Shown: positions 5,978 to 27,656, numbered from the stretch's first letter. The stretch is DNA of 34,851 bases from a bacterium SM23_31 (GCA_001304035.1 LJUD01000001.1:1-34851); one strand, 5' to 3'. The notes: generated from the sequence alone by a model not told the origin. Numbers and translations: made by a program.

Positions 5978-5985
5978 ATAACTTT

Positions 5986-7110: not shown

Positions 7111-7114
7111 CAGA

Positions 7115-8611: not shown

Positions 8612-8613
8612 AT

Positions 8614-11941: not shown

Positions 11942-12385
11942 TCATCCCGTCAAGATATTAACTAACCTGCAAACCGATTGTTCCAATTCGGTGCTCAATC
12001 CTTCTTTAAGCTCAGTTGTTGCCGGTTGAATACCGAGTAGAAAAATTTTAGCTGGAATATGCTGGCAAATATAAGAAGCGAAAAGGTTCAGAGAAGCATT
12101 ATGTGTAGAGAATCCATATTCACTACATTCGTCAGGAGTAAAGATTTTCCAACTGCCGGGTTCGCCTTCAAAGGAGAGAGCATCTATAATGATAATAGTA
12201 TCCGGGCGATACTGGATAATAAACTTAGTATAATTTTCAGGAACTGTTCCAACGTCTAATATATTAGTAAAACCTGCCGAAGATAATTTTTCAACTAAAA
12301 CCGGACCAACCCCATCATCTCCCCGCTGGCGATTACCCACACCGATAAAAAGTACACGCCCGACAGCAATCTCGTCAAGATTCAC
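11942..12385 (-). CDS. Hydrogenase maturation endopeptidase (HycI type)
   Basis: FIGVGNRQRGDDGVG, IIIDAL...PG and FSTHNASL motifs. It is the last gene of the group-4 hydrogenase cluster. Confidence 0.8.
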   Translation of the reverse strand: MNLDEIAVGRVLFIGVGNRQRGDDGVGPVLVEKLSSAGFTNILDVGTVPENYTKFIIQYRPDTIIIIDALSFEGEPGSWKIFTPDECSEYGFSTHNASLNLFASYICQHIPAKIFLLGIQPATTELKEGLSTELEQSVCRLVNILTG

Positions 12386-12497
12386 AATTAATCATGATAA
12401 TTATTCAAACTTTTATTGTATAGTATTTATTATTTTTATAATAAATTGATGTCTGGAGCAGGAGTATTCACTTCTGAGATATTATCACACGAAAGGT

Positions 12498-13118
12498 TTA
12501 TTCAAATGTGCCCCACTCTTCGGAAAGGATTACGTTTCTGCGGCAGTCGGGACATAAAATCCGGGCATTATCATTCCTTCCGATTCTCCGTTTATCCCGT
12601 TCCGGTGTTTGGGCTACCAGTTCTAATTCCCCCAAACCGACAAGCATCAATGTCCAGTTTCCGGCAACACTCGAGCCTAACCGGTGGTAAATCCACTTCA
12701 AGTGATCCTTCGTAGCAAACGGTCTGCCGCATATTTCACATTTAACCATCTCTTTTTCAACTTTTTCAACAGCGTCTGCCCGATCAAAAACGGCAAGATC
12801 AAACTCCTGATTCTGAATAATCCCCTTTTTAGTAGTGCATTTTTCCACGCACGTTCCACAATAAACACAATTATCCAAATGGACGGTTAATATACGATAT
12901 ATCTTATCATCTTTCTGTTCTTCGGTAATTTCAATTGCATTAGCCGGACATACTTCGCTGCAAGCTCCGCATCCGATGCATTCTTCCTCCTGATATTCCG
13001 GTTTGCCCCGAAATTCTACAGGTATCGGAGGAGGAGATTTTGGAAAATCTATTGTATAGGGACCCGCTACTAATGCGATAACTGCTTCTTTTAATTCCCG
13101 TAGTTTCGGTTTCTTCAT
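12498..13118 (-). CDS. 2x[4Fe-4S] ferredoxin subunit, HycF/NuoI-like
   Basis: CIGCGACSEVCP and CVYCGTCVEKC, plus a C-terminal CEICGRPF...CPDCRR tail resembling the Cys tail of E. coli HycF. Confidence 0.75.
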   Translation of the reverse strand: MKKPKLRELKEAVIALVAGPYTIDFPKSPPPIPVEFRGKPEYQEEECIGCGACSEVCPANAIEITEEQKDDKIYRILTVHLDNCVYCGTCVEKCTTKKGIIQNQEFDLAVFDRADAVEKVEKEMVKCEICGRPFATKDHLKWIYHRLGSSVAGNWTLMLVGLGELELVAQTPERDKRRIGRNDNARILCPDCRRNVILSEEWGTFE

Positions 13119-13141
13119 GATTTTATTTCTCCGCCAATATT

Positions 13142-13492
13142 TCAGGAGTCTTCTTTTTTCAGCGAACCTTGCCGGTCTTCAAGGTACTTATCACATGCAC
13201 TGCCTTTCCATAATTTATAACCGGCTTTATGGGACGCTCGCGAAATGGCATGTGCCGCAGTAGGTGAAGTCATAAAAATAAACCAAATGCAAAGAATAGC
13301 TTTTATACCTACTGCATTTATACCATTATAAAAGACTGCCCCTAAGAGAATTAAGCACGTTCCTAAAGTAACACATTTTGTCGAACTCTGGAGCCGGTTG
13401 TATACATCAGGAAGCCGTACCAAGCCTAAACAGCCGGAAAAGTCGAAAATAAGTCCGCAAACGATCAAAATAAATCCGATTGTTTCAGTCAT
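13142..13492 (-). CDS. Mrp/Mnh antiporter subunit G-like
   Basis: Three TM segments with RLPDVYNRLQSSTK and SPTAAHAISRA motifs. Start moved to ATG 13492, which overlaps the upstream stop by 8 nt; the track start 13528 would overlap more. Confidence 0.75.
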   Translation of the reverse strand: MTETIGFILIVCGLIFDFSGCLGLVRLPDVYNRLQSSTKCVTLGTCLILLGAVFYNGINAVGIKAILCIWFIFMTSPTAAHAISRASHKAGYKLWKGSACDKYLEDRQGSLKKEDS

Positions 13493-13739
13493 CGTAAGTT
13501 CTTCCTTCCAGAAACTTTGATAAAGCAATCGATCCTATAAAGCTCAATAACGCCCAGGCTAAGGCAATGTTCATATATAAATCTTGCTTGCTTAATGCAG
13601 AGAATATCCCACAAAATCCAACTATAATAATTCCTAATATATCATTAGCCACTATCCGGTCGGATGGTGTCGGACCAAAGGCAATTCGGTACAGACACAT
13701 AAAACAACATATAATTAATACAACAATACAACCGGTCAT
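13485..13739 (-). CDS. Mrp/Mnh antiporter subunit F-like
   Basis: 84 aa, three hydrophobic helices, GPTPSDRIVAND motif. Confidence 0.7.
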   Translation of the reverse strand: MTGCIVVLIICCFMCLYRIAFGPTPSDRIVANDILGIIIVGFCGIFSALSKQDLYMNIALAWALLSFIGSIALSKFLEGRTYDD

Positions 13740-14257
13740 TCGAATATCCTCCTGAGAATATTTTCAAATTTATTTACGATAATAATAGTTGCGCCTTCTA
13801 TGTCTTTCGCAAGCACATTAATCCAATGAATATAGAGATATTCTCCTTCTATATCTACAGTTAAGGTACCCGGGGTTAACGTGATAGAATTTGCCAGAAA
13901 TGTCTTTGCAAGATCGGTTGTAAGGGCAGTACGAACCTTTACTATCCCTGGATTAATGGGCAAGTCCGGATGGAGCACCCGGTAGAGAACATCAAGATTT
14001 GCCTTGAATACACAATAGAGAAAATAAGGGATATATACTAAAAGCCAGAAAAGACGGCGTGGAGTAAATAGTAGTACCATGTTAGGGGGAAACAAATCCG
14101 ATAAAAAAAGCACAACGCCTGCTGCAACAATTACGCCGACAATTAAGGTCAACGGGTCTATTGTCCATGTAAGCGCTAACCAAATAAGAAACATTAAAAG
14201 AAACTCAAAAAGGCGTACTCTGAATTTGAATCCTGTTGACTTTTCTATTGACTCCAT
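13736..14257 (-). CDS. Mrp/Mnh antiporter subunit E-like
   Basis: 173 aa. N-terminal TM pair, then ANSITLTPGTLTVDI motif. 4-nt overlap with the F subunit. Confidence 0.7.
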   Translation of the reverse strand: MESIEKSTGFKFRVRLFEFLLMFLIWLALTWTIDPLTLIVGVIVAAGVVLFLSDLFPPNMVLLFTPRRLFWLLVYIPYFLYCVFKANLDVLYRVLHPDLPINPGIVKVRTALTTDLAKTFLANSITLTPGTLTVDIEGEYLYIHWINVLAKDIEGATIIIVNKFENILRRIFE

Positions 14258-14491
14258 ACGATATCCCGGAAAATTACATTATTTATTTGTTAAAAACGTC
14301 AAAGAGGTTTACGATGCCTCATTGACGCCCCGAGTATTCGGGGCGGCTACCGATTATATTTTTTATTATTACCTGCACATGATAGCCGCACACCTATAGT
14401 GTGCGCTTGATTTTGCCAAAGTTCTGCTAATATTAAAATTTGCGAAAGTCCTGATAATAGCATAATTCTAATAGCAAACAGCTAACAGTGA

Positions 14492-15973
14492 TTATGGAAC
14501 TACTTGTAATACCAGTTGTATATATTTTTGCTGGTCTATTACGGTATCCCGTGCTATCTCTAATAAAGTATTGCCGAAAAAGGGATATAGAAGACCGGAC
14601 AGGAGACATAATACTGCAAAAATAACAAGCACCGTCCCCATTAAAACCGGAACCTCCTTGATGTTCTTCAATTTCTCAGGGAGGTCTCCAAATATAGAAT
14701 ATCTCTGTACCTTAATGAAGGAGACCAGCGTAAGAAAACTGACACCAACGGTAACTGCTGCGATTGCATAATATTCCGCCTGAACCAGGGCAATAATAAT
14801 AAGCAATTTGCTCCAGAAACCGTTAAACGGGGGTATTCCGGATATAGAAAGTGATGCAATAGAGCATGAGCTTGAAGTAACCGGCATTCTTTTAAAGAGT
14901 CCGCCCATTTCCTTAAGATTTCTCGTGCCGGTACTGTATTCAACTGCCCCCGAGCATAAAAATAAAAGAGACTTGAAAAAAGCATGGTTCATCAAATGGA
15001 ACAAAGCTCCGAGTATGCCCAGAGGAGTAGCAAGCCCGATTCCAACCATTACATAACCCATCTGACTTATACTGTGATATGCTAAAAGCCGTTTGAAGTC
15101 CCACTGCCCCACAGCGAGTAATACACCGACAACCATCGACAATACTCCGAGGGACATCAATATTATATGAGTGATATTGGTCATACCGATAACATGGTAA
15201 ACGACACGAATGATAGCATAAATACCACAGGCTTTGATGAGTACTCCCGAGAGCATGGCAGAAATTGGTGCAGGGGCAGATGGGTGAGCATCCGGCAGCC
15301 ATGCATGAAATGGAACCATAGCACCTTTCAAGCCAAAACCCATAATAAAAAGCCCTTCTGCAAAGAGAACCGATCTGTTTATCCCGTTAGCCAAAATTGA
15401 GTTAGCCAAATCAGCCATGTTCAGTGTTCCAAAAGTAGCATATAAAATTGCAATACCCAGCAAAATTAATGTAGATGAAACACTTCCTAAAATCATATAT
15501 TTGAAAGAAGCTTCCAATTCTTCATGTTCGCATCCAAATCCCACCAGTGCATAGGAGGAAATAGTAGCAATCTCTAAAAACACAAATAAATTAAATATGT
15601 CACCTGTAATAACCACACCGCTCATTCCCGCTACCATTAACATAAAAAGTGAGTAAAACCGTATCTTGGATGTGTACATCTCCATATATTTAAATGAATA
15701 TAAAAGGGATAATAAACCCACGATATTTATAAGGAGTAATAATAATGTGCTAATACTATCAGAAACCAGCGTGATACCTATCGGGGGTATCCACTTTCCA
15801 ATAAAATATGAAAACGGTTCATGACCAATTAGAGCAATAACCATGATAAGTAAAATGATTTCTGCAATAGCCACAATGACTTCAACTAATTTGGTGAGCG
15901 ATTTCGGAAAAAGGAGAATAAGAAATGCTACGCCTAACGGAATAGCGACGAACAATGGATACAATTGCTGCAT
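14492..15973 (-). CDS. Antiporter-like proton/sodium-translocating subunit (MrpD/NuoM/N family)
   Basis: 493 aa and polytopic. Motifs WLPDAHPSAPAPISAMLSG and LLAYHSISQMGY. Confidence 0.85.
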   Translation of the reverse strand: MQQLYPLFVAIPLGVAFLILLFPKSLTKLVEVIVAIAEIILLIMVIALIGHEPFSYFIGKWIPPIGITLVSDSISTLLLLLINIVGLLSLLYSFKYMEMYTSKIRFYSLFMLMVAGMSGVVITGDIFNLFVFLEIATISSYALVGFGCEHEELEASFKYMILGSVSSTLILLGIAILYATFGTLNMADLANSILANGINRSVLFAEGLFIMGFGLKGAMVPFHAWLPDAHPSAPAPISAMLSGVLIKACGIYAIIRVVYHVIGMTNITHIILMSLGVLSMVVGVLLAVGQWDFKRLLAYHSISQMGYVMVGIGLATPLGILGALFHLMNHAFFKSLLFLCSGAVEYSTGTRNLKEMGGLFKRMPVTSSSCSIASLSISGIPPFNGFWSKLLIIIALVQAEYYAIAAVTVGVSFLTLVSFIKVQRYSIFGDLPEKLKNIKEVPVLMGTVLVIFAVLCLLSGLLYPFFGNTLLEIARDTVIDQQKYIQLVLQVVP

Positions 15974-16034
15974 AATTACCTATCTAACCCCAAATATAAT
16001 TTATGATGAGCAAACAGAAGTCTACAATTATTCT

Positions 16035-16385
16035 CTACCCTCTCAACCTGCTTATTTCAGACGTATCAAACGTTTTATATTTTTCGTAAAGACGTAAGGC
16101 GATACTGACCATCATGATTAAAACACCCAAACTAATTACAATGGAAGTTAATACTAATGCTTGTGGTAATGGGTCGACACTTTGTTGGGAAAACGTTTGC
16201 TTATTCATACCTTCAAAGAGAACAGGAGGAATTCCCCCTGATTTATAGCCAATTAAAATTAAAAAGAGATTTACCGCATAATCAAGAATTGCTATACCAA
16301 TAATTTTTTTTATAAGATGTTTTTTTGCTATTAAACAATACAATCCCATTACAAACAGGAAAAAACACATTAAGTAGATGGTCAT
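16035..16385 (-). CDS. MrpC/NuoK-like small membrane subunit
   Basis: 116 aa, three TM helices, DPLPQALVLTSIVI motif. Confidence 0.7.
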   Translation of the reverse strand: MTIYLMCFFLFVMGLYCLIAKKHLIKKIIGIAILDYAVNLFLILIGYKSGGIPPVLFEGMNKQTFSQQSVDPLPQALVLTSIVISLGVLIMMVSIALRLYEKYKTFDTSEISRLRG

Positions 16386-16397
16386 TGAAACTTCTCC

Positions 16398-16880
16398 TTA
16401 CAAATTACGATCTATATTACCTACATATTCCTCATCATTCTCATATTCTTCTGCATCGCCGACAAAGCGTCCAAAAAAAACAAGCAACACAAATATTGTA
16501 AAAATAGCGGATACAATGATTATGCTAATAGCTATATCTGCAAACGGAATCAAACCGGCGCTGTGTAAATGAAATTCCTTACCGTGATCTATGAAATTAA
16601 AAAAGAATGTCCCATCTATATAACCCAACAGGGCAATAGCCAGAAATGCCAGAGCTCCGATACAACTGAGAAAATGAGCTACATTTGTTCTCATTTTCTG
16701 AATGGCTTTTTCTCTTCCAAAAACCAGCATAATCAGGATAAAACCGCACGTTAGAATAACTCCGCCTGCGAAACCGCCTCCAACGCCTAAATGTCCAAAT
16801 AAAATAATGTTAATACCATAGAGAAAAATCAGTCCAATTACAAATTGGGTTACTTTCTTTACAATAAGACTCATACCCAT
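16398..16880 (-). CDS. MnhB/MrpB-domain membrane subunit
   Basis: GHLGVGGGFAGG motif (MnhB GHxxPGGGFxGG type) with four TM helices. Confidence 0.7.
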   Translation of the reverse strand: MGMSLIVKKVTQFVIGLIFLYGINIILFGHLGVGGGFAGGVILTCGFILIMLVFGREKAIQKMRTNVAHFLSCIGALAFLAIALLGYIDGTFFFNFIDHGKEFHLHSAGLIPFADIAISIIIVSAIFTIFVLLVFFGRFVGDAEEYENDEEYVGNIDRNL

Positions 16881-16913
16881 TTGAGTGCGCTCCTTTGTTT
16901 ACCGGTGTACCTA

Positions 16914-17444
16914 CTATAGGTTCACACCCCTTTTACGGCCGATTCTTCGCATTATAACTGTAGCACCTAATACTGATACGAAAAGAACCGTTGCTTCACC
17001 CAATGTATCATAGGCTCGATAGTCCAGTATTATAGAAGTTACTATATTGCTTGCCCCGGTTTCAGCCAGCCCGTTATCCAGATAATGTTGTGAAGTTCTC
17101 ATTAAAGACTCACCAAATGCATGCATTTCCAGAAATGCGTATGATGCGAATACCAGAAACAGCCCCACAAAGACCAAACTTGACACCATAGCAAAGGTAT
17201 CTCGATGTTTCTCGATGGCAGTATTATCCACAGAAATAGTCGCCCGAATTAAAATAACGAGTGCTAAAATTTCAACAACTACCTGAGTAATCGCAAGGTC
17301 CGGCGCTCCCAGCATCAAAAATAGTATACTGAGTGTAAAACCAACTATTCCAACCGATATGACCGAAGAAAGTAGATTGCGTGTTTCTATTGCAACAATT
17401 GATCCCAGAATCATAATCGCTAATAGGGTGTAAAAAACGAGCAT
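16914..17444 (-). CDS. MbhD/MbhE-like subunit (DUF4040 plus MrpA C-terminal/MnhB N-terminal-like segment)
   Basis: GAPDLAITQVVVE (DUF4040-like) and NIVTSIILDYRAYDTLGEATVLF motifs. Confidence 0.65.
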   Translation of the reverse strand: MLVFYTLLAIMILGSIVAIETRNLLSSVISVGIVGFTLSILFLMLGAPDLAITQVVVEILALVILIRATISVDNTAIEKHRDTFAMVSSLVFVGLFLVFASYAFLEMHAFGESLMRTSQHYLDNGLAETGASNIVTSIILDYRAYDTLGEATVLFVSVLGATVIMRRIGRKRGVNL

Positions 17445-17464
17445 AAAGCCCTCTCATTGAAAAT

Positions 17465-19291
17465 TTAGCGGACTAAAATGAACAAAAGAATTCCCAATCC
17501 TATAATACACCAGGACAGGTACGTAGATAAGACTCCGTTATGTAAAGCACGGAGGCTCTGAACTAAAATATTCCCGATACGACCGCCCAGATTGTAAATA
17601 TCAAACGTTCCTTTTTCACCGTCCCGGTATGCACCTTTTAAACCACCCATATCGATTATAGTATTATAAAAGTCCGTACCGTGAACAGGCTTCAGTCTGT
17701 CTGAAAACTCGCTACCTCCTACAAATACTTCTGCCTGCCTTTTTGTTAAGAATTTTCCGAGCAGAAATATTAACATACCAATGACGAGACCTGCTAAAAT
17801 CAGCCCGGTAGCCAGAGTAGGGTCCCATATTGCATCACTTGCGACAGGAACGGCACTCTGGGGATAACTTCCCTCTACTGCCGGGATTAACAGGTATTTC
17901 ATCGGCAAACTGGCAAAAACTCCAAATATAATGCACAATGCTGCCAGAACTACTAAAGGTGCACCCAATGAAAATCCTTCTTTTTTCATTTTCTCAGAAC
18001 CAGGCGCAGGGCTTCCAAAAAAGACAGAATGGATAACCTTGACAAATGAAGCAAGAGTTAAAGCACTACCAAACATTGCAGCAACGAGGAAAATGGGCTG
18101 ATTAATATCAACCAGACTCTGGTAGATTAACCATTTCGAAAAGAATCCATTTAATGGCGGAATACCGGAAATGGCAAGCGATGCTATAACCATTGATATA
18201 AATGTATACGGCAATATCCTTGCAAGACCGCCTAATTTATCCAAAGCGGTTGTTCCGGCACGGTTTTCTACAACAGCGCTTCCAAGAAACAAACAACTCT
18301 TATATATGGCATGATTTATCATGTGGAAAAGTCCACCGATAACCCCGACCATCGTTCCCGTCCCAATTCCCAGTACCATATATCCAACCTGGCTTACTGC
18401 GTGAAAAGAGAGGAGTTTTTTAAGGTTATGCTGAATGAGAGCCATCATAACGCTTACGATAATCGTAACAGCGCCGATAATTAACATGAGCATTGAAAGG
18501 CTATGGGAAACCTTGAAAATAGATAGATTGATTAATCCTAAGAAGTAAATTCCCAGCAATTTATCAAGCGCTGCCGGAAGAAACGCCATGACCGGTGTCG
18601 GAGCAGATTCTGAGATTGCAGGTATCCATGAATGAACCGGAATAGCTCCGGCTTTTGCCAGGGTTGCTACTAAAAAGAAGATAAATACAGCGGTTGTAAG
18701 CCCACTCTCAACGGGAATTGTCAATGCACTTATCCGGAGTGTACCATATTGAACCCATATAATAACTATTCCTAATAAAAGTAGTACATCGGAAAGACCC
18801 AATATTACAAAACTTTTCCCCGCTGCTGCATTAGCCGTACCTTTGCCCATATTTATGAGGTAATACAATAGAACCGTTGTAACTTCCCAGCATAACAGTA
18901 GCAGAAATAAATTATCGGCGGTAACAATCCCTATTGATACAGTGACAGTCCAAAGGATAAAGGGAAAATAAAACCGGGAAATTTCGCGGTTAGCATAATA
19001 TCCTGCGGAAAAGACGCTGATAATAACTCCAAAAAATGTAATAAAAAGTAATCCCATTAATCCTAATCGTGTCAGGGTAAAATCTAAGGAGAATGTGAGA
19101 TTGTCCACCGTGAACCATTCCCAACCGGCGGATATACCGGATTTTCCAATCAAAGCTAATGCGCTGATAAAACCCAGCAGCGCCCCTGCTATGGTTAAAA
19201 AATTTGTCAGAAAGGGAATTCGCCTGGGTAAAATGAATAACACTAATCCGAATAAACCTGTAAAAAAGACTGGATATAATAACTCATTCAT
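17465..19291 (-). CDS. Antiporter-like large membrane subunit (MrpA/NuoL/HycC family)
   Basis: 608 aa and polytopic. Motifs VHSWIPAISESAPTPVMAFL and LLSFHAVSQVGYM. Confidence 0.85.
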   Translation of the reverse strand: MNELLYPVFFTGLFGLVLFILPRRIPFLTNFLTIAGALLGFISALALIGKSGISAGWEWFTVDNLTFSLDFTLTRLGLMGLLFITFFGVIISVFSAGYYANREISRFYFPFILWTVTVSIGIVTADNLFLLLLCWEVTTVLLYYLINMGKGTANAAAGKSFVILGLSDVLLLLGIVIIWVQYGTLRISALTIPVESGLTTAVFIFFLVATLAKAGAIPVHSWIPAISESAPTPVMAFLPAALDKLLGIYFLGLINLSIFKVSHSLSMLMLIIGAVTIIVSVMMALIQHNLKKLLSFHAVSQVGYMVLGIGTGTMVGVIGGLFHMINHAIYKSCLFLGSAVVENRAGTTALDKLGGLARILPYTFISMVIASLAISGIPPLNGFFSKWLIYQSLVDINQPIFLVAAMFGSALTLASFVKVIHSVFFGSPAPGSEKMKKEGFSLGAPLVVLAALCIIFGVFASLPMKYLLIPAVEGSYPQSAVPVASDAIWDPTLATGLILAGLVIGMLIFLLGKFLTKRQAEVFVGGSEFSDRLKPVHGTDFYNTIIDMGGLKGAYRDGEKGTFDIYNLGGRIGNILVQSLRALHNGVLSTYLSWCIIGLGILLFILVR

Positions 19292-19429
19292 GGACTTTTA
19301 CCTTAACTATTACTATTAAGCTTCTTTATCTCCCGAAAGTACGTGCCCGAATTCATTACAGCAGGGTCGACAAGGAACTCACTTTTCCGGATAATCCAAA
19401 TGTCATATAATCATTCACATCCGGGTTTT

Positions 19430-20644
19430 TCAAAATTCTAATTTCAAGGGAAGATCAGGTGGTCTTCCTAATTCCCTGGCAATTGCTTTTGTCTTTTCCT
19501 GTCCCATCCGTACCAGGTCATTGCCGGTATATATTATCTTTCCGGAACCGGGGTCAACAACTACTGCCATCCGTTCAGTACAACTGTAGCAGGGGTCGCA
19601 TGAGGCAAGAGTTATAGTAACATCACTGATAGATTCACCGATACAGGAAGCATGGAAGGATGGAACATTCACATTACTGGGTGCGCGAACCTTCCACCGT
19701 TCCGGCATATTCGTTCCGTTGGAGCGCACATAATGAATATCTTCACCCCTGGGGGCTTCGTAGCGTCCTATACCCTCTCCGACAGGTATTTGTTTTATTG
19801 TATTTAAAATAGGACCTTTTGGAAACTGTTTCACACACTGTTCAACGATTTTAGTGGATTCAATGATTTCCAACAATCGTACTGCCACTTTGGCAAAGAC
19901 ATCGCCATCTTTCCATACAATAACTTCCCAGTCTACTTCATCGTAAGCGCCGTAAGGTTCATCCCGCCTAACATCGGTATCGACTCCGGAAGCCCTTGCT
20001 GTAGGACCAACAACACACCAGTCTACAGCATCTTCATAGGTTAATACGCCAACATTTTTGGTACGGGAATGGATAACCGGGTCGTCGATTACCGCTTCCA
20101 ATAACATTTTTGTCTGTCCCCGGAGGGTACTCATGATTTCTAATAATTTGGGAAAATGTTTTTCATCAAGGTCGCGGCGTACGCCTCCGGGTTTCAAGAT
20201 ACTGGATGTTCGACGATTGCCCGTCAGCGCTTCAAGTATATCCAGGACCGGTTCCCGGTATTTCCATGCCCACATAAAGACCGTATTATATCCAATGAAA
20301 TGTCCGGCTAATCCCGCCCAGAGGAGGTGACTGTGACACCGTTCCAGCTCACCGAGTATCGTCCGAATATACGCTGTCCGTTTCGGAATTTCAATCCCTA
20401 AAAGATTTTCCACGGCATGGCAGAAACAGACCGTATGTGTAACCGAACAAATTCCGCAGATTCGCTCCGTCTGAATAACTACCTGATCATAAGTTTTGCT
20501 TTGCCCCAGCAATTCATGACCTTTATGTATATATCCCATATTGGCTTCTATATCGACAACCTTTTCCCCTTCGACCGTTAATAGAAAGTTTGCCGGTTCA
20601 TCTTGAAGAGGATGAAACGGACCAATGGGAATTACTGTGCTCAT
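19430..20644 (-). CDS. Group-4 [NiFe]-hydrogenase large subunit (NuoD/HycE/MbhL-like) with long C-terminal extension
   Basis: GPFHP, RICGICSVTH and DPCYSCTER motifs, followed by a 46-aa tail. ATGA overlap with the NuoC-like gene. Confidence 0.9.
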   Translation of the reverse strand: MSTVIPIGPFHPLQDEPANFLLTVEGEKVVDIEANMGYIHKGHELLGQSKTYDQVVIQTERICGICSVTHTVCFCHAVENLLGIEIPKRTAYIRTILGELERCHSHLLWAGLAGHFIGYNTVFMWAWKYREPVLDILEALTGNRRTSSILKPGGVRRDLDEKHFPKLLEIMSTLRGQTKMLLEAVIDDPVIHSRTKNVGVLTYEDAVDWCVVGPTARASGVDTDVRRDEPYGAYDEVDWEVIVWKDGDVFAKVAVRLLEIIESTKIVEQCVKQFPKGPILNTIKQIPVGEGIGRYEAPRGEDIHYVRSNGTNMPERWKVRAPSNVNVPSFHASCIGESISDVTITLASCDPCYSCTERMAVVVDPGSGKIIYTGNDLVRMGQEKTKAIARELGRPPDLPLKLEF

Positions 20645-21108
20645 GCTTCACCTATACTTTCTCTGAATTTTTCCAGGTCAAAGTCTTTTCGCAATGGATA
20701 TACATCTTCCGGGATACTACGAGCCTTGAACAGTCTTTTCAACTTGGGATGTCCCTTAAAGACCACACCTAAAAAATCGTGAATTTCCCGTTCAATCCAA
20801 TATGCGCCTTTCAGAATATCCTGGACACTGTCCAGCTCCGGCATATGTTTCGGAGTCGTTACCCGAATTGTAGCAACCAGGGGGAAACCATTAAATGAAA
20901 AGTGGTACATAACTTCAATGCCTTCCCGTACTTCTATCCCCGTTGCAGTAGAAAGCCTGCCCTTTTTTTCTTTATAAACATACTGAATAACTTCACGGAG
21001 GTCTTTCGGTTGAACCCGGACATACAGCCTCTTATCTGAAGCGGTTTCAAAGCGTACCTTTTCGGAAAAAGTCTCAGAAAGATAGAACGTCATTTCTTTG
21101 GCGGTCAT
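20641..21108 (-). CDS. NuoC/MbhK-like 30-kDa-family subunit (separate from the large subunit)
   Basis: GAYWIEREIHDFLGVVFKGHP motif. Start moved to ATG 21108 (ATGA overlap with the NuoB-like stop). The track start 21180 would overlap the upstream gene by 76 nt. Confidence 0.8.
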   Translation of the reverse strand: MTAKEMTFYLSETFSEKVRFETASDKRLYVRVQPKDLREVIQYVYKEKKGRLSTATGIEVREGIEVMYHFSFNGFPLVATIRVTTPKHMPELDSVQDILKGAYWIEREIHDFLGVVFKGHPKLKRLFKARSIPEDVYPLRKDFDLEKFRESIGEA

Positions 21109-21551
21109 TTTGCTACTCCATTTAAAGATTGCAGGGCTTTCACTATCCCCATAATGATAGCCTCCGGTCGGGGTGGACAACCAGGAATGTATACAATTAT
21201 TGCATTCGGATCGATAGCCCGAATAACCTTGTCCGGGGGACCTGACACACTGTACGCATCTTTAAAAATACCCATAGAACAGGCACATACGCCAACACAC
21301 GCTACAACACACGGCTTGGGAGTTTCCCGATATACCTGTTCTAAAGGTTCTTTGCAATGGGATGCTACCGGACCGCTGACAAGCAAAATATCAGCGTGAC
21401 GAGGGCTTCCCACAAGTTTTATCCCGAAACGTTCTATATCAAATCGAGGGGTTAAACAATCTAATATTTCTATATCACAATTATTGCAGCCGCTCGTCCC
21501 TACGTGATATACCCATGGAGACTTTATTAATGCTTTCTTAAATATATCCAT
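21105..21551 (-). CDS. Group-4 hydrogenase small subunit (NuoB/HycG/MbhJ-like)
   Basis: GCNNC, SPRHADILLVSG and IPGCPPRPE motifs. Confidence 0.85.
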   Translation of the reverse strand: MDIFKKALIKSPWVYHVGTSGCNNCDIEILDCLTPRFDIERFGIKLVGSPRHADILLVSGPVASHCKEPLEQVYRETPKPCVVACVGVCACSMGIFKDAYSVSGPPDKVIRAIDPNAIIVYIPGCPPRPEAIIMGIVKALQSLNGVAK

Positions 21552-21622
21552 TTGCCCTTATATAATCTTAAATTGAAAAGTAATTGGTTTTTTTTCGATT
21601 ATTAAAAATACCTTTCAAAATT

Positions 21623-22558
21623 TTAATAACCAAAATAGGCTAAAATCATTGCCAATATAGCAATTAGTGTCATCGGACCCCAGAAAAACCGCATTGCAGT
21701 ATCAATTCTTAACCGGGGATTCGTATTTTTTATTAGAATAAATACTACAGCGATAGCCAGAATTTTTAGAATCGACCACAGGATGTGCAAACCCGTGAAC
21801 GGCAGCCCTCCCAGAAAAATGAGCGATAAAAATATTGTCAGTACAAAAAAGGACATGGCTTGGGTTAATTTGATGAGGGCCAATGCCACCCCGGAGTATT
21901 CAAGTATAGCCCCTTCCATGAGTTCCGTATCGGCTTCCGCCATATCAAAGGGGGGTAAGCCTAATTTTGCGACCGTGCAGATAATCGCTACCAAAAAAGC
22001 CAATATAACGGAAATATTGGCAATGACAAATCCTCCCTCTTGTTGAATGAGTATAATATTACCAAGAGACAGAGTGTGTAACTTAAATGCTACTACCAAT
22101 ACAGATATGATAAACGGGAGTTCGTATCCGAGGGTAAGTTTCATCTCACGGCTCGCACCAATGGCAGAAAAAGGATTCCCCGAAGAGGTTCCTCCCAAAA
22201 CAATGGCAAGAGACGGTAATGCCAAAAGGTAAAATATAACAATCAAATCCCCAACAAAAGTTTTGGCAGGGTTGAGATTCGTTAACCATAAGATCATCGA
22301 AACGAGAGCAATTCCAACAAATCCGATAAGGGGCGCCAATAAAAAACCGGTTTTACTGCTTATTCTGGGTACAATTAATTCTTTGCCAAGGAGTTTCATT
22401 ACATCATAAAACGGCTGTAAAAATGGGGGCCCTTTACGCCATTGTACACGGGCAGAAACTTTCCGGTCTACCCATTGAAACACCAATCCAACGACAGCAG
22501 TGAACAGAATCCCCGGAAAGAAAAGAAACGCAACAATGTAAAAAGCCACATTATCCAT
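21623..22558 (-). CDS. NuoH/HycD/MbhM-like membrane subunit
   Basis: 311 aa. WVDRKVSARVQWRKGP and FDMAEADTELMEG motifs. Confidence 0.85.
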   Translation of the reverse strand: MDNVAFYIVAFLFFPGILFTAVVGLVFQWVDRKVSARVQWRKGPPFLQPFYDVMKLLGKELIVPRISSKTGFLLAPLIGFVGIALVSMILWLTNLNPAKTFVGDLIVIFYLLALPSLAIVLGGTSSGNPFSAIGASREMKLTLGYELPFIISVLVVAFKLHTLSLGNIILIQQEGGFVIANISVILAFLVAIICTVAKLGLPPFDMAEADTELMEGAILEYSGVALALIKLTQAMSFFVLTIFLSLIFLGGLPFTGLHILWSILKILAIAVVFILIKNTNPRLRIDTAMRFFWGPMTLIAILAMILAYFGY

Positions 22559-22592
22559 ATGTTTTAAACCCTTGCTGGAGAATATATTTATC

Positions 22593-23342
22593 TTAAGAAA
22601 ATTGTACGCGCAATCCCTCTAAAGTTTTAAGATTTTCTTTAGAACGCACATCATCCGGGTCAAGCTCCACCGCCCGTCGAAAGGCTGCGATAGATGCATC
22701 CAGGTCTCCTTTCTTATAAAATGCTATACCCAGATGATAGTTGGCAATGGCATCATCCGGATTCGTTTCCAGAAATTTTTTAAATGTCTCAATTGTTTCG
22801 TCCGTTAGACCTTTTGTAGCGCAGACAATCCCTAAATGATAATACGCAATAATAAAATTCGGATGGGCTTCAATTAATTTTCTATAGGCTTCACAGGCTT
22901 CGTCCATTTTGCCCTGGTGGTAATATACACTTCCCAACCAATACAGGGCATTATGAAAATCCGGATTTAATTCTAATGCCTTTTTAAACTCCTTGACTGC
23001 TTTATCAATTTTTGCTTCCTGATGATATGCCAACCCGAGGCTGTAATGTATATCAGCCCTGTGGGGGGCTAAGGCGAGGGCACGTTCAAGATGATAAACC
23101 GCCTCTTTCAATTTGGCAGAGCGATAATATGCATTCCCGACATGGAGGTGAATATCTCCTCTGGGTTCTAATTTTAATATTTTTTCAAACTCTGCAATGG
23201 ACTCCAGATACAACCCTTTCAATTCCAATTCCCAGGCTCCCGCTAAAATAGACTGTACACCAGTAATTCTCAGGTCATATCCGCATTCAATACAATACTT
23301 ATTCTCAGGTAGATTGTCAGTTTTACAACGTGTGCATTTCAT
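22593..23342 (-). CDS. Zinc-ribbon plus TPR-repeat protein
   Basis: N-terminal CTRCKT...CIECG ribbon, then about 5-6 TPR-like units (repeated YYxxGxxxEAxxxxxKALELxP pattern). Confidence 0.7.
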   Translation of the reverse strand: MKCTRCKTDNLPENKYCIECGYDLRITGVQSILAGAWELELKGLYLESIAEFEKILKLEPRGDIHLHVGNAYYRSAKLKEAVYHLERALALAPHRADIHYSLGLAYHQEAKIDKAVKEFKKALELNPDFHNALYWLGSVYYHQGKMDEACEAYRKLIEAHPNFIIAYYHLGIVCATKGLTDETIETFKKFLETNPDDAIANYHLGIAFYKKGDLDASIAAFRRAVELDPDDVRSKENLKTLEGLRVQFS

Positions 23343-23379
23343 ATACTATAACCCTCCTAATTGTTACGTATATTTCACC

Positions 23380-23871
23380 TTACATTCTTCGTATAATAGC
23401 ACGGGATGAAATCCGACCGCCTATCCATACTTCTTCAGCACTCGCCTCGGTGATTTCTTCAAAACTCAGTGCACCCGAAGTACAAGTCGCTACACATCTG
23501 GGGATTTTTTCATTTAATACCCGGTCTATACAGAGGTCACATTTTGCTGTAACATGCTTCATAAGGTCTATACTGATCACCCCAAATGGACAGGCAAATA
23601 CACAAGAATGACAACCGATGCATAATAAATTGGATCGATGAACAAATCCATATTCATCTTTTTGCAGTGCCTCTGTCGGACATGCTTCAACACAGGCGGG
23701 CTTTTCGCAATGCCGGCAATGGAGGGGCAGAATGGCGATTTCCCCAATCCTGCCGAGCATGACATTCGCCTGTTCATGATATCCGAGAGCACAGGCAGCA
23801 ACACAACTCTGGCATCCTATACACAGGTCAAGATCTAAAATAATTCGTTTATTAATTTTCTTCTTCTCCAT
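23380..23871 (-). CDS. Multi-[4Fe-4S] ferredoxin, HycB/DmsB-like
   Basis: CIGCQSCVAAC, CRHCEKPACVEACP, CIGCHSCVFACP and CDLC...C motifs. Confidence 0.8.
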   Translation of the reverse strand: MEKKKINKRIILDLDLCIGCQSCVAACALGYHEQANVMLGRIGEIAILPLHCRHCEKPACVEACPTEALQKDEYGFVHRSNLLCIGCHSCVFACPFGVISIDLMKHVTAKCDLCIDRVLNEKIPRCVATCTSGALSFEEITEASAEEVWIGGRISSRAIIRRM

Positions 23872-23878
23872 GATTCAC

Positions 23879-25717
23879 TCAGAGAAATTCTACGCTCACT
23901 TTTGCAGGTTTAATATTCAAATAGCCCCACTGGGGGAGCATTTCCCACTGCAACAGGCTCCGGATTTGTGGAAAATGAACCGGTGCAATGATCATCCCTT
24001 TTTCAGCTCGACGGCTTACTTTTACCGGGATAGTAATCTTATTTTCACTGGAACTTATCCGAACCATCCCCGAAATGTGCACTCCATTTTCCCCTTCTGC
24101 AATCATAGCTATTGGTTCCGGGCACATGCGCTGGGACCAGGATAAATACTGAGTAATTGCTCCATCACCCGAATGGGAAAAATCATTATTCGGAACCAGC
24201 ATTTTTTGATTAGATTCAACTGCTGAATTATCTTTTATTAAATCTTTAATCTCTATGAAGTGATTGGCAATATCCTCTTCGGTTTCCTGCGCTGCGGCTT
24301 CAGGTGGCTCGATTTGCTTTTTATCAAATCCTTTTTGGTGAAGAGCATCGATGAGAATGGATAGAATCCCTCCGGTTGTTTTTATATGTCCGGGAGGCGA
24401 TAAAACAGCGTCCAATTTCAGAGAGTTGCCCAACATATTAATAGTGGTGCCTGTTTTTTCAACCCAGGGAGCGGCAGGCAGTATGACATGTGAGAATCCC
24501 GTTGTATCATTAGGAAAAATGGAAGTGCTTAATAAAAAGTCGAGCTTCTTTATGGCATTGGTTGCCCGTGTGCCCGGAAAAGTCCTGATAATGTCGACAC
24601 CAAAATTCAATAATACTTTCAGGCTTCCTTTTTCAGCAGCTTCTATCATTTGTGAAGCGGTCATCCCTGCAGCGGGCTTAAAGTTAGCAATGGCTTCATG
24701 CATTCCCAGAGAATTGGCACCAGTAAAAACCGGAAGGAAATAACTATCCGTAGCATCCGATAGTGCCTGACATAATTCTGTTACCAAGTCTGCCCGATCA
24801 TATACACCAAAACCTGATACCAGGGTCACTATAGAAGGTTTTTCCCGCATCATCAAACCGGCGGCAGATTGAATTTGATCAAGGCTCACACCGGTGAGCT
24901 TGCAAATATCCTCGATTTCTATAGAGTCTAATACATGCTTAACGGCTGCTTTCCATGGTATAGCTTGTTGTTTACCTATTTGTTCAAGTAAGAGTATTAA
25001 GATACCCGTTAGAACCATTACTTCAGTTCCCGGATTAGCCCGCAGATGGAGGTCAGCAAACCATCCGGTATTTGAATTAGAAGATTCAAGGACTACCATC
25101 TTGTTAGCCCGCTGGTCGTATTTGGCTTTAAGAAAATGTCTTGATAGAACAGGGCTTACACCAAACACGTCCCCGACAATAAAAGATGTATGCATTCCAT
25201 CGATTTCTTCAATACTTGGCAGTCTTTTCTGAAAGAATGCTCCCTGCCGGATCTTAGCGAGAATAGGCTCGTCTTCTAATGCACAATAATCGATATGGGG
25301 GGTTCCGATAATTTGGGCGAGGTCTATTGCCTGCTCTGTTTCCTCAATGGTAAGATAAGGACTGAGCATAATACCTACACTCTCTGCCCCATTTTTCTCG
25401 ACCAGAGCGGCTATTTGCTCTATTATATCTGTCGTTACATTCTCCCAGTGTACGTCCCGGTATCCTGATGATTTCAGGATCCGGGGTCCCGGGATACGTT
25501 TCGGATGATGTAATAATTCAAATAAATAATTGCACTTGCCGCACAATGATCCCCGGTTAATGGGATTATCCAGTTGATATTCCAGTTCATTAGTAGCAAT
25601 GGGCTGATAATAAACCCTGTCTTCTCCTCGATTTACGGTTAATCCACACCCGAGTGAACAGAAAAAACAGATTGTATTTCGTGGTTCTTTCATACTTATT
25701 AGCTCATGTCTTATCAA
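23879..25717 (-). CDS. Molybdopterin-oxidoreductase-family subunit, FdhF-like but lacking formate-dehydrogenase catalytic residues
   Basis: N-terminal CFFCSLGCG...CGKC [4Fe-4S] motif and a C-terminal molybdopterin-binding-like barrel (ITIPVKVSRRAEKGMIIAPVHF). TTG start at 25717; ATG alternative at 25693. Confidence 0.75.
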   Translation of the reverse strand: MIRHELISMKEPRNTICFFCSLGCGLTVNRGEDRVYYQPIATNELEYQLDNPINRGSLCGKCNYLFELLHHPKRIPGPRILKSSGYRDVHWENVTTDIIEQIAALVEKNGAESVGIMLSPYLTIEETEQAIDLAQIIGTPHIDYCALEDEPILAKIRQGAFFQKRLPSIEEIDGMHTSFIVGDVFGVSPVLSRHFLKAKYDQRANKMVVLESSNSNTGWFADLHLRANPGTEVMVLTGILILLLEQIGKQQAIPWKAAVKHVLDSIEIEDICKLTGVSLDQIQSAAGLMMREKPSIVTLVSGFGVYDRADLVTELCQALSDATDSYFLPVFTGANSLGMHEAIANFKPAAGMTASQMIEAAEKGSLKVLLNFGVDIIRTFPGTRATNAIKKLDFLLSTSIFPNDTTGFSHVILPAAPWVEKTGTTINMLGNSLKLDAVLSPPGHIKTTGGILSILIDALHQKGFDKKQIEPPEAAAQETEEDIANHFIEIKDLIKDNSAVESNQKMLVPNNDFSHSGDGAITQYLSWSQRMCPEPIAMIAEGENGVHISGMVRISSSENKITIPVKVSRRAEKGMIIAPVHFPQIRSLLQWEMLPQWGYLNIKPAKVSVEFL

Positions 25718-25724
25718 CTATATT

Positions 25725-26552
25725 TTAGCCCAAAACTCCGGGAAAGTCTTTAATCAGGTCATAATTCATATCCGGGCCGTCTTTACACAGATAATATGGG
25801 CCGACGTTGCATCGCCCGCATATCCCCATTCCACAGCTCATATTCCTGTTCATAGAAAGGTATATTTGCTTTGGAGTAAATTTGGCATTCAACAGACTTA
25901 AAGTGACAAATTTTAACATCACTTCCGGTCCACATACAACTGAATAGCTATTGTTGAGATTAATATCCAGAACTTTCAGTAATTCCGTAACTAATCCTAC
26001 ATTACCTTCCCATCCCGGATGGGGAGTGTCAATGGTAATGGTCATATCGACTTTTTTATATTTTGCCCATTCATCAAAAAACTTGTAATAGACTAATTCC
26101 TCCGGATTTTTTGCGCCATATTTGATAGATACACGTTCGACTTTGTCAATGTCATGAAAAAGAGCTAAGAGGAGGGCTCTCAGGGGCGCAAGTCCTACTC
26201 CGCCGCCAACTACCAAAATTTCCTTTTTATAAAACTTCTCCAAGGGATATCCCTTACCAAACGGTCCCCGTAATCCTACTATATCACCCGGCTTCAATTT
26301 ATGCAAGGCATCCGTTACTGTTCCTGCTTTGAGTACCGTAATTTCCAACCGTTCAGGTTCATAAGGTGAGGAAGACGGAGTAAACGGGGCTTCCCCCACA
26401 CCGGGAACGGTTAACTGCATAAACTGTCCTGCCCGGAAATGAATAGGGGGATCGGGACACGTTACAAATGTCTTAATAGTCGGTGTTTCAGTTATAACAT
26501 CTTCTAAAGGGAGAAATACCGGTGCAAATATATTTTCCATGATTCCTGCCAT
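25725..26552 (-). CDS. FAD/NAD(P)-binding [2Fe-2S] oxidoreductase subunit (AsrB / sulfhydrogenase gamma / PyrK-like)
   Basis: GGGVGLAPLR nucleotide-binding motif and C-terminal CGMGICGRCNV...C cluster motif. Confidence 0.8.
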   Translation of the reverse strand: MAGIMENIFAPVFLPLEDVITETPTIKTFVTCPDPPIHFRAGQFMQLTVPGVGEAPFTPSSSPYEPERLEITVLKAGTVTDALHKLKPGDIVGLRGPFGKGYPLEKFYKKEILVVGGGVGLAPLRALLLALFHDIDKVERVSIKYGAKNPEELVYYKFFDEWAKYKKVDMTITIDTPHPGWEGNVGLVTELLKVLDINLNNSYSVVCGPEVMLKFVTLSLLNAKFTPKQIYLSMNRNMSCGMGICGRCNVGPYYLCKDGPDMNYDLIKDFPGVLG

Positions 26553-26576
26553 CTATTGATTCTTTGGAAAATAAGG

Positions 26577-27656
26577 CTACTTCAATTCAACATACTTTTC
26601 AATGTTCTTTAACACTTCACGTTTATCAATCTGTCCCATGCACGTTTCAATGCATCGACCGCATCCTGAACAAGCTTCAAATCCATAGTTTTTGACGAAC
26701 GAATCAAATTTATGATAATAATGATTTTTGAATCGGTCGACAAGGTGCAGTCTGGGTGTAATTCCTCCTGCCATGCGTGCATAACCTGCGTGAAAACATG
26801 AATCCCACACCTTCATCCGTTCATTCCCATCATCATGCTTCTGGTCATACAATAGGAAACAATAACACGTAGGGCACACATAATTACATCCGTTACATTC
26901 TACGCAGGTTTTGGAAACATCATGCCAAATTGGAGCATTAATGTTTTCTTCAATAATCCGCTGCCGTGATTCTGCTGTTTTATAATTTTGATTTTGGCGT
27001 TCGACGATTTTATTGAGTTTTGTTCTTTGTTGGTTTCGATGATTTATATGCTCTTTGGTTGCCTCCGTGAACAGGTCCAAGTGATCCTTAATAATTTTCT
27101 CTCCTTTTTCAGAACCGCTTTCAAAAATATAACCACCGTTTATGGGTGACATATTTAAATCGTATTCTTCTTCCGGATGCGGCTGTAATCCAACAACCGT
27201 GCAAAAACAATTCTCCAGTGCCTCTGTACAATCTCCCGAAATAATTACTGTGTTTTCACTATTATCGCTGTATAAGGGATCAACATATTCCCCTTTTAAA
27301 AAGATTGTATCCAATACCTTCTTTCCCAAAAGGTCGCATGCTTTCACGCCAAAAACTATTCGCTGCTTTTCAGAGGCTTCCACTGTGTCGGAGACCGGAA
27401 GATACTGTGCCACTACACATTTCGCCTGGAAAAATAATGCTTTTAAGAAAGGCAAAGCCGTTCGAAAAGGATTAAACAAAAATGATTCGGATTCGGCTTC
27501 CTTTCCATTCCATGAACTCAGAAAATACTTATTATCATGTGTATAAGGAACATATACAGTATTGGAGGAAGCTAACCGGGCTATTAATTGAGCAATATCA
27601 GTAAATTTTATATAATTCATTTTTCCATCTTCTGTATGCCCGTTAAATTTATGCAA
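26577..27656 (-). CDS. Iron-sulfur subunit (AsrA / sulfhydrogenase beta-like)
   Basis: GVKACD, CVECNGCNYVCPTCYCF and CSGCGRCIETC motifs. The track start is TTG 27656; ATG 27620 (MNYIKF) is an equally plausible start. Confidence 0.75.
   Translation of the reverse strand: MHKFNGHTEDGKMNYIKFTDIAQLIARLASSNTVYVPYTHDNKYFLSSWNGKEAESESFLFNPFRTALPFLKALFFQAKCVVAQYLPVSDTVEASEKQRIVFGVKACDLLGKKVLDTIFLKGEYVDPLYSDNSENTVIISGDCTEALENCFCTVVGLQPHPEEEYDLNMSPINGGYIFESGSEKGEKIIKDHLDLFTEATKEHINHRNQQRTKLNKIVERQNQNYKTAESRQRIIEENINAPIWHDVSKTCVECNGCNYVCPTCYCFLLYDQKHDDGNERMKVWDSCFHAGYARMAGGITPRLHLVDRFKNHYYHKFDSFVKNYGFEACSGCGRCIETCMGQIDKREVLKNIEKYVELK

Follow-up and report, generated by a model that had tools for sequence, protein, structure and literature searches.

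A 34,851-nt stretch of DNA from the bacterium SM23_31 (LJUD01000001.1; the whole stretch is called the window here) carries on its minus strand, between positions 11,942 and 27,656, a 19-gene operon whose product is, to judge from the predicted proteins, a group 4 [NiFe] hydrogenase with a complete split Mrp membrane arm. On the basis of gene content, gene order and motifs the operon is a member of an already described class, known as Hun or as the "Mbh-Mrp-oxidoreductase" type. We propose with moderate confidence that this Hun-class enzyme is an ion-translocating hydrogenase exchanging electrons with NAD(P)H, using a module that resembles the beta and gamma subunits of sulfhydrogenase I (SHI) together with a four-cluster ferredoxin, with the molybdopterin-oxidoreductase-family protein MopB as an accessory. 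The 19-gene arrangement is far beyond chance, the order recurring in 80 related loci.

The 19 co-directional open reading frames (ORFs) run from 27620 to 11942 (27656 being the mechanical first start), all of them lying where the original prediction had placed them, and assignment of families gene by gene with Pfam, NCBIfam and PDB searches bore out its gene order, families and spacers. The junctions were recomputed with the most plausible ATG starts, which were backed by the product lengths in a relative from candidate division KSB1 (locus L081), and measure in gene order 24, 31, 7, 37, 34, 71, -4, -4, 138, 20, 33, 12, 61, 234, -4, -8, 23 and 112 nt, with ATGA overlaps at NuoB/NuoC and NuoC/NuoD. 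Starts were trimmed for the AsrA-like gene (27620, replacing the mechanical 27656), MopB (25693), NuoC (21108, such that an ATGA overlap replaces one of 76 nt) and MrpG (13492).

The large subunit of the hydrogenase (AMJ80_00105; hunG-like, 19430–20644, 404 aa; Pfam Complex1_49kDa, 2e-71, and NiFeSe_Hases) is a NuoD homologue with both NiFe-binding CxxC pairs and with its L1 (RICGICSVTH) and L2 (DPCYSCTER) motifs intact. Its closest solved relative in a PDB search was Pyrococcus furiosus MbhL (6cfw; 293 bits, 4e-86), followed by HycE (7z0s; 266 bits, 6e-78). The 46-residue C-terminal tail of the protein is predicted to be a cleavable extension for processing by HycI, and a HycI-type maturation endopeptidase is encoded within the operon (11942–12385; Pfam HycI, 4e-16). 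The same cluster holds a set of complex I-like subunits, comprising a NuoH/MbhM-like membrane subunit (hunD-like, 21623–22558; Pfam NADHdh, 1e-70), a NuoB-like hydrogenase small subunit (hunE-like, 21105–21551; Pfam Oxidored_q6, 1e-24) with CxxC, C and CPP cysteines in its translation, a NuoC-like subunit (hunF-like, 20641–21108; Pfam Complex1_30kDa, 2e-26) that from the ATG at 21108 has 155 aa, as has the L081 product, and a HycF/NuoI-like subunit with two [4Fe-4S] clusters and a Cys-rich C-terminal CxxC...CxxC tail (hunP-like, 12498–13118; PRK12387, 1e-34, and HyfH, 2e-33, in NCBIfam; Pfam Fer4_7), in addition to the antiporter-like subunits. NuoC and NuoD are separate genes, as had been stated originally.

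The membrane arm begins with a NuoL/MrpA-N-like antiporter subunit of 608 aa (hunH-like, 17465–19291; Pfam Proton_antipo_M, 3e-54), which aligns with the full NuoL (residues 26–607 against model positions 28–610 of 615 in NCBIfam). This is followed by a membrane subunit resembling MbhD plus MbhE, equivalent to the C-terminal part of MrpA (16914–17444; Pfam MbhD, 4e-16, and MbhE, 6e-11), and by MnhB/MrpB-like (16398–16880; MnhB, 2e-18), MrpC/NuoK-like (16035–16385; Oxidored_q2, 6e-26) and MrpD-like subunits, the last being a second antiporter subunit of 493 aa (14492–15973; Proton_antipo_M, 5e-73). Beyond a 234-nt spacer come MrpE-like (13736–14257; MNHE, 2e-40), MrpF-like (13485–13739; MrpF_PhaF, 2e-17) and MrpG-like (13142–13492; PhaG_MnhG_YufB, 4e-26) subunits. 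Homologues of the N- and C-terminal parts of MrpA and of MrpB, C, D, E, F and G are all present by Pfam, with Proton_antipo_M occurring twice, and the domain matches uphold the group 4 hydrogenase, the complete split Mrp set and the two antiporter-like pumps of the original prediction.

The electron-input genes stand at the start of the operon. The hunA-like gene (26577–27620) encodes an AsrA/SHI-beta-like multi-FeS (iron-sulphur) subunit of 347 aa from the ATG at 27620 (Pfam Fer4_22, 1e-27) that matches SHI beta (9nez_B) at 1e-33 with its Cys motifs aligned, while the hunB-like gene (25725–26552) encodes an AsrB/SHI-gamma-like subunit of 275 aa for flavin adenine dinucleotide (FAD), NAD(P)H and [2Fe-2S] (Pfam FAD_binding_6, NAD_binding_1 and DHODB_Fe-S_bind) that matches the NADPH-binding gamma subunit of P. 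furiosus SHI (9nez_C) at 1e-48. The motifs are well kept in orthologues, those of AsrA-like cysteines in 49–58 of 58, and in the AsrB-like protein the NAD(P) motif GGGxGxAP in 56 of 61, the [2Fe-2S] motif CX4CX2C...C in all 61 and the flavin-site motif PFTPSSSP in 50 of 61. Judged by these alignments the two genes are true homologues of the SHI NADPH module, probably sharing its fold and cofactors, and the sulfhydrogenase beta/gamma-type module that had been proposed for the operon is well supported. NCBIfam matches to the ShyB/HydB/AsrA-type families all fell well below the equivalog cut-offs (ShyBC, HydBG, AsrAB), and the two proteins are therefore homologues and not orthologues of ShyBC/HydBG or AsrAB. 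The SHI homology and the conserved NAD(P), FAD and [2Fe-2S] motifs make an NAD(P)H-linked ion-translocating hydrogenase a reasonable prediction. Between this module and the core lies the hunC-like gene (23380–23871), encoding a HycB/CooF/HydN-type ferredoxin of 163 aa (Pfam Fer4_11, 4e-21) with four [4Fe-4S] motifs, read from the cysteines in its translation; the identification of HycB, HycF and HycI as parts of formate hydrogenlyase (FHL) type was confirmed. An anaerobic sulfite reductase, AsrABC, was also considered for the operon and ruled out, as no gene for the sirohaem catalytic subunit AsrC was found by Pfam in the window operon, and in related loci only AsrA- and AsrB-like genes precede (MopB-)HycB; the absence of AsrC has also been remarked upon by Glass et al. 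(10.1101/536078).

The relatives examined were the best 80 loci from a genome scan with the window large subunit, and their gene order was read by tblastn with the 19 proteins of the window as queries. The large subunit has its nearest named relatives in KSB1 metagenome-assembled genomes (MAGs) and a single-amplified genome, and the loci span about ten phyla, including KSB1, Calditrichia, Planctomycetota (with Pirellulales, Sedimentisphaerales and Brocadiia), Acidobacteria, Omnitrophota, Margulis-/Saganbacteria, Zixibacteria, Latescibacteria, Gemmatimonadota, Balneolales and Bacteroidales. Colinear gene order was kept across the 80 loci. In a rough neighbour-joining tree the large subunits of the window and its relatives form one clade remote from MbhL, with the L2 motif reading CYCC in 49 of the 80 relatives and CYSC in 31, the window pair being CGIC-CYSC. 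HycB was matched in 72 of the 80, the remaining contigs ending before the gene, and HycI matches covering half the query or more came from 33 of 80, many contigs ending before that position. Counts of the input genes use the 53 loci in which 3.9 kb or more of sequence precedes HycB, and in this set AsrA- and AsrB-like genes were both present in 53 of 53, always directly upstream of (MopB-)HycB-NuoH, which answers the search for asrAB-like genes beside group 4 hydrogenases that had been suggested with the original prediction. The KSB1 relative L081 (83% identical) has the same 19 genes set among unrelated neighbours, and the 19 genes are therefore regarded as one module. Loci from Saganbacteria/Margulisbacteria (L048, L035 and L058) have the same order, with several Mrp small subunits giving no match. 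In one planctomycetal locus (L015:1057-3699) HycB is preceded by genes that do not resemble AsrA/AsrB, one ORF having a Molydop_binding domain and another of 606 aa having no Pfam match; the input module there may be different or disrupted and MopB different and possibly split. No AsrA/AsrB match was found upstream of HycB in L053.

This conservation bears on whether the operon encodes two enzymes that are merely co-transcribed, namely a soluble AsrA/AsrB(-MopB)-HycB oxidoreductase and a ferredoxin-dependent Mbh-Mrp hydrogenase. Physical association of the two halves is suggested by synteny, and the junctions are not all tight, the largest spacers after the lineage-specific one of 234 nt being those in front of hunH (138 nt) and hycI (112 nt). 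Set against this, strict colinearity is retained in about ten phyla despite differing flanks, the HycB/TPR/NuoH junctions where such enzymes would divide are 34–37 nt long with no terminator-like site on the coding strand, and the bridge from the soluble dehydrogenase to HycF in E. coli FHL is formed by HycB (structures of the PDB 7z0s family). We consider two separate enzymes very improbable.

In the single enzyme that we favour, all the parts of a continuous FeS path are encoded, from the NAD(P)H flavoprotein and FeS protein through the four-cluster and two-cluster ferredoxins to the NuoB-like cluster and the NiFe site. NAD(P)H would be oxidised at the AsrB-like flavoprotein, with electrons passing from the AsrB-like [2Fe-2S] cluster to the AsrA-like FeS clusters and on through HycB, HycF and the NuoB-like cluster to the NiFe site, where protons would be reduced to H2. 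The H2-forming step would drive export of H+ or Na+ through the Mrp arm, as in Mbh, and the reaction is expected to be reversible. We infer the assembly of all parts into one complex, the identity of NAD(P)H as the partner and the driving of ion export by proton reduction. The potential of NAD(P)H is about -320 mV, while that of H+/H2 is -414 mV at 1 bar and rises by about 30 mV for each ten-fold drop in H2 to reach about -270 mV at 1 Pa. At about 1 Pa H2 an estimated 10 kJ/mol or so would be released with NADH, and with a reduced NADPH pool the yield could reach about 20 kJ/mol, roughly sufficient to move one ion per H2. The direction from NAD(P)H to H2 would thus be profitable only at the very low H2 of anoxic sediment, and at high H2 the enzyme would run backwards, dissipating the gradient.

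Several points weigh against this proposal. Formation of H2 from NAD(P)H is endergonic at standard H2 and, by analogy with Mbh and complex I, ion export should add to the cost of electron flow to the NiFe site, such that the enzyme would be expected to work only at or below about 1 Pa H2, while the docking of soluble-type subunits onto a membrane complex is suggested by synteny only. The invariant Asp, the conserved Lys/Arg44 equivalent and the LP...E...G segment of MopB (see below) leave room for Mo/W chemistry in its long forms. In addition, the authors who named Hun predicted ferredoxin, and not NAD(P)H, as the electron donor (10.1101/536078).

In a ferredoxin-dependent Hun, HunA-C would pass electrons from ferredoxin to the NiFe site, pumping would be Mbh-like and the NAD(P) domain would be either vestigial or regulatory in function. 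Glass et al. put forward this model, which fits the default HydDB 4g annotation and has straightforward energetics; the large subunit is also nearest to that of the ferredoxin-dependent Mbh, and polyferredoxins of the HycB/CooF type can dock ferredoxin-linked partners. In Mbh, however, ferredoxin donates directly to the NuoI-like subunit and no AsrA- or AsrB-like partners are required, and a ferredoxin donor gives no account of the presence of these genes in every one of the 53 loci. Likewise, conservation of the NAD(P) and FAD motifs of the AsrB-like protein across phyla is unexpected for a vestigial site, and the closest characterised homologue of this protein is the NADPH-binding SHI gamma. 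On balance we regard ferredoxin dependence as possible but unlikely.

The role of MopB (23879–25693, 604 aa; Pfam Molybdop_Fe4S4 and Molybdopterin), the optional FdhF-related subunit encoded between the AsrB-like and HycB-like genes, was approached through conservation of its motifs, statements on which cover 28 family members. The best PDB matches are formate dehydrogenases (F420-FDH 9t1s_L, FdhF of the hydrogen-dependent CO2 reductase 7qv7_S and FdhH 1aa6), the best NCBIfam match, to Fdh-alpha, scores 164 bits where the cut-off is 666, and no Pfam match to the Molydop_binding domain was found in the window MopB. The family has kept all four [4Fe-4S] cysteines, has either Lys or Arg at the position equivalent to Lys44 and shares a conserved LP...E...G segment close to the cofactor position. 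We take the catalytic set to be Sec/Cys140, His141 and Arg333 in E. coli FdhH numbering. Ungapped profile alignments, for which the xD-x-C-A motif served as anchor, place an invariant Asp (Asp141) at the Mo-ligand position of Sec/Cys and a variable residue at the catalytic His position. The Arg333 motif is not present in the family alignment, and the DPR and G-S-N motifs of solved formate dehydrogenases are replaced. The mapping of the Sec/Cys-His positions is confirmed by the PDB alignments. A mapping of Sec to Glu and His to Asp, obtained from a MAFFT alignment with FdhH, contained a one-residue gap before the active-site motif and was superseded by the ungapped PDB profile alignments.

MopB was found in 23 of the 53 loci and was absent from 30. 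Its median orthologue identity of 27% is the lowest in the operon, that of the large subunit being 57% and of the AsrB-like protein 51%. Short forms of about 460–490 aa in Margulis-/Saganbacteria and Latescibacteria are without the C-terminal domain (domain IV), which is still detectable in the long forms as a third aligned stretch in the profile alignment. In the rough large-subunit tree both main branches contain MopB-positive loci, in a patchy distribution that fits an ancestral gene lost repeatedly.

These findings bear on the FdhF-like gene as a pointer to formate, as which it had been used originally, and on a further alternative, a formate hydrogenlyase or formate-respiring enzyme in which MopB oxidises formate and the hydrogenase evolves H2 in the manner of groups 4a/4b. 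The Fdh proteins among the best NCBIfam and PDB matches and the FHL-type HycB, HycF and HycI would be in keeping with such an enzyme. Since MopB is without the Sec/Cys-His-Arg catalytic set and is absent from most of the related clusters, it is concluded that MopB is not a formate dehydrogenase and is dispensable for the core function. No formate transporter gene was found within the operon by Pfam and the Saganbacterial orthologue could not be placed among formate dehydrogenases (PMC6349859). We regard a formate-linked enzyme as extremely improbable, and the FdhF-like gene no longer serves as evidence for it.

A catalytic MopB acting on some other substrate is the basis of a further alternative, in which a three-terminal confurcating or bifurcating enzyme would carry an Asp-ligated Mo/W-bis(pyranopterin guanine dinucleotide) MopB with an unidentified substrate, as proposed from AlphaFold3 models of related clusters (PMC13582414). 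The invariant Asp at the ligand position, the conserved Lys/Arg44 equivalent, the FeS cysteines, the LP...E...G segment and the detectable domain IV of the long forms would all suit such chemistry. Several observations speak against it: the 30 clusters without MopB are otherwise identical, its patchy distribution on the large-subunit tree fits repeated loss, it is the fastest-evolving gene of the cluster, the Margulis-/Saganbacterial and Latescibacterial proteins have no C-terminal domain, and the formate dehydrogenase-type DPR and G-S-N motifs are replaced. Likewise, no molybdenum cofactor (Moco) riboswitch or other Rfam element was found upstream, and the operon encodes a single FAD of ferredoxin-NADP+ reductase type, with no second flavin as in known bifurcating enzymes. 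A three-terminal enzyme therefore appears to us decidedly unlikely.

An NAD(P)H-linked hydrogenase with MopB as an accessory remains our preferred reading. In Nar-type enzymes Asp serves as Mo ligand, and the C-terminal domain of NuoG is a cofactor-less scaffold. MopB could be either a cofactor-less FeS scaffold like that domain or a side branch to some substrate, and its long forms may still bind a Mo/W cofactor through Asp, as Nar-type enzymes do. MopB has a partner in the gene for a Zn-ribbon and tetratricopeptide repeat (TPR) protein of 249 aa (22593–23342; Pfam TPR families, N-terminal CxxC...CxxC), found in 19 of the 23 MopB-positive loci and in none of the 30 MopB-negative loci. Its restriction to MopB-positive loci suggests a MopB-specific assembly or docking factor, and the best reading of MopB and the Zn-ribbon/TPR protein is as putative dispensable accessories. 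No mention of the Zn-ribbon/TPR gene was found in the class literature examined.

Expression of the operon may start at a candidate sigma-70-type promoter, TTGAAT-17-TATAAT (27732–27760, minus strand), about 110 nt upstream of the first ATG, a pattern match only, with 10 of 12 consensus positions, that was the best on the minus strand in a consensus scan of the 502-nt upstream gap. No riboswitch, Moco or other, was matched by Rfam in the 500-nt leader at gathering score or at E<=1. Imperfect sigma-54-like -24/-12 matches are also present within the 502-nt region, at 28110–28125 (TGGCACAATTTTTGTA, in which T replaces the conserved C of the -12 GC) and at 27960–27975 (minus strand). A strict sigma-54 scan of the 500 nt upstream of the asrA-like genes in related loci gave one match (L042), not enriched over background, and sigma-54 control as a general feature of the operon was dropped, the window candidates being imperfect and the sole convincing promoter being that in L042. 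Directly upstream of the operon lies a gene for an RsbW/SpoIIAB-like anti-sigma-factor kinase (28159–28599, minus strand) and further upstream one for a DUF2225 zinc-ribbon/TPR protein (31098–32384, minus strand), neither of which is kept beside the operon in L081.

Within the operon, the structured mrpD-mrpE spacer of 234 nt (14258–14491) has a minimum free energy of -60.8 kcal/mol (z = -2.5) with two perfect hairpins, the hairpins including GCCCCGAATACTCGGGGC. The corresponding junction in L081 is 48 nt, and the long spacer is therefore a lineage-specific insertion. No other copy of a repeated element from it was found anywhere in the window. The last hairpin is weak and is followed by GUUUUU, making partial termination possible there, and the spacer could be either an element that inserted here or an attenuator within the operon.

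A second hydrogenase unit (4054–11794, plus strand) is convergent with the operon and is preceded by a near-consensus sigma-54 promoter, TGGCATATTATTTGCA, at 3980–3995. Its products are a response-regulator/GcvH-like/HycI-like fusion, the small and large hydrogenase subunits, an endopeptidase, a PAS histidine kinase and a sigma-54 activator. The fusion protein of 586 aa (4054–5814, plus strand; Pfam Response_reg, 1e-46, GCV_H, 3e-14, and HycI, 3e-6) has the order receiver, glycine-cleavage-H-like domain, second receiver-like region and C-terminal HycI-like protease. The small subunit (6124–7110, plus strand) is without a Tat (twin-arginine translocation) signal, and the large subunit (7115–8611, plus strand), which has a 15-residue C-terminal tail, has as its closest solved relative Mycobacterium smegmatis Huc (7utd, 1e-108). 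From its gene content the unit looks like a cytosolic group 2-type H2 sensor or regulatory module. Homologues of the kinase and the sigma-54 activator lie directly upstream of the asrA-like gene in Brocadiia (L057 and L067), a Latescibacter (L055) and an unclassified bacterium (L024), with a sensor-like large subunit also beside the hun-type operon in L057 and L067, and partial matches to the kinase/activator neighbourhood were seen in L012, L042 and L061. Because the gradient would be lost at high H2, control by H2 is attractive, which gives the neighbouring operon its relevance. It is possible to envisage a three-terminal machine in which the NAD(P)H flavoprotein, the NiFe site and an Asp-ligated Mo/W centre sit on an Mrp pump and in which expression is governed by the adjacent group 2-like H2 sensor, histidine kinase and sigma-54 activator such that the enzyme runs only when profitable, but we regard this as a long shot. 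As L042 alone has a convincing sigma-54 promoter before a hun-type operon, the regulatory link between the second unit and the hun-type operon is a lead, not a result.

The class occurs in many uncultured anaerobes, such that the identity of its electron partner affects models of how H2 is produced and consumed in sediments. With NAD(P)H as the partner, these organisms could re-oxidise NAD(P)H directly to H2 with conservation of energy, a complex I-like solution without quinone. Such a link to NAD(P)H has already been predicted in the literature; the class is recognised and its biochemistry is the gap.

The combination of genes, which the original prediction did not recognise, is not new. The same synteny has been reported previously (10.1101/536078; PMC6349859; 10.1101/765248), as has the pairing of the input subunits (PMC13582414). 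It has been documented as synteny and not for a characterised enzyme, since no biochemical characterisation of any class member was found in the searchable literature, subscription-only papers not being covered. What may go beyond the published accounts is the linkage of AsrA/AsrB-like genes in all 53 loci, the invariant MopB Asp with the strict dependence of the TPR gene on MopB, and the recurrence of a sensor-like hydrogenase module as a neighbour.

The closest described system is the 16-subunit Hun supercomplex, hunA-P, in which HunA and HunB resemble AsrA and AsrB and HunG (RXG63129 in Atribacteria) is a HydDB group 4g protein with the motif pair CGIC-CYCC (Glass et al., 10.1101/536078). 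Hun was reported from MAGs of Atribacteria, Firmicutes, Omnitrophica, Elusimicrobia and Bacteroidetes and from Kosmotoga isolates, with White Oak estuary "SM" MAGs included in the Hun figure (10.1101/536078). The subunit set and order are those of the window (AsrA-like, AsrB-like, FeS protein, NuoH, NuoB, NuoC, large subunit, NuoL-like, Mrp-like and NuoI-like), the habitat is the same and an optional 4Fe-4S molybdopterin gene likewise lies between hunB and hunC. The window differs in having CYSC in place of the reported L2 CYCC, and adds the Zn-ribbon/TPR gene and hycI within the operon. The same type was described in Saganbacteria RX5A as an "enigmatic" group 4 hydrogenase whose cluster includes asrA, asrB, cooF and a gene for a molybdopterin protein that could not be classified (Matheus Carnevali et al., PMC6349859) and in Elusimicrobia as the "Mbh-Mrp-oxidoreductase type", where the function of the oxidoreductase was not assigned (Meheust et al., 10.1101/765248), its nearest relatives being in Zixibacteria and Omnitrophica. 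The Saganbacterial/Margulisbacterial MopB is short, whereas the window has a long MopB and a full Mrp set. In a recent survey about half of the Fdh-like subunits in the group 4b clusters analysed were without the Mo-ligand Cys/Sec and these co-occurred with SHI-beta/gamma homologues, with AlphaFold3 models giving a three-branched FeS network from which bifurcation or confurcation was proposed (PMC13582414, 2026). Those clusters share the input module and the Cys/Sec-less Fdh-like subunit with the window but have HyfE- and HyfC-like subunits and 11–12 genes. HunG and the Mrp-linked Omnitrophota enzymes have been placed in 4g in the literature, while clusters with the same input module have been placed in 4b, with 4g being polyphyletic (PMC13582414).

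Among the characterised enzymes, P. furiosus Mbh (4d, 6cfw) shares the NuoB/C/D/H/I-like and Mrp-derived subunits and redox-driven H+/Na+ transport, but has one antiporter-like subunit, no AsrA/AsrB, HycB or MopB, direct use of ferredoxin and another gene order. E. coli FHL (4a, 7z0s) and Thermococcus Fdh-Mfh-Mnh (4b) share MopB, a chain from a HycB-type ferredoxin through HycF and NuoB to the NiFe site, and processing by HycI, with the 4b enzyme also having an Mrp module as in the window. They differ in having a catalytic Fdh (Sec/Cys), HycE as a NuoC-NuoD fusion and no NAD(P)H module, and FHL-1 is without the Mrp set. In SHI (3b, 9nez) homologous beta and gamma subunits connect NADPH to the NiFe site, but SHI is soluble and belongs to group 3. 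Finally, the architecture of complex I is analogous to that predicted for the window complex, with an NADH module, a non-catalytic MopB-derived NuoG, a NuoI/NuoB chain and an antiporter arm, but complex I uses NuoE/NuoF with FMN and reduces quinone at a site without a NiFe centre.

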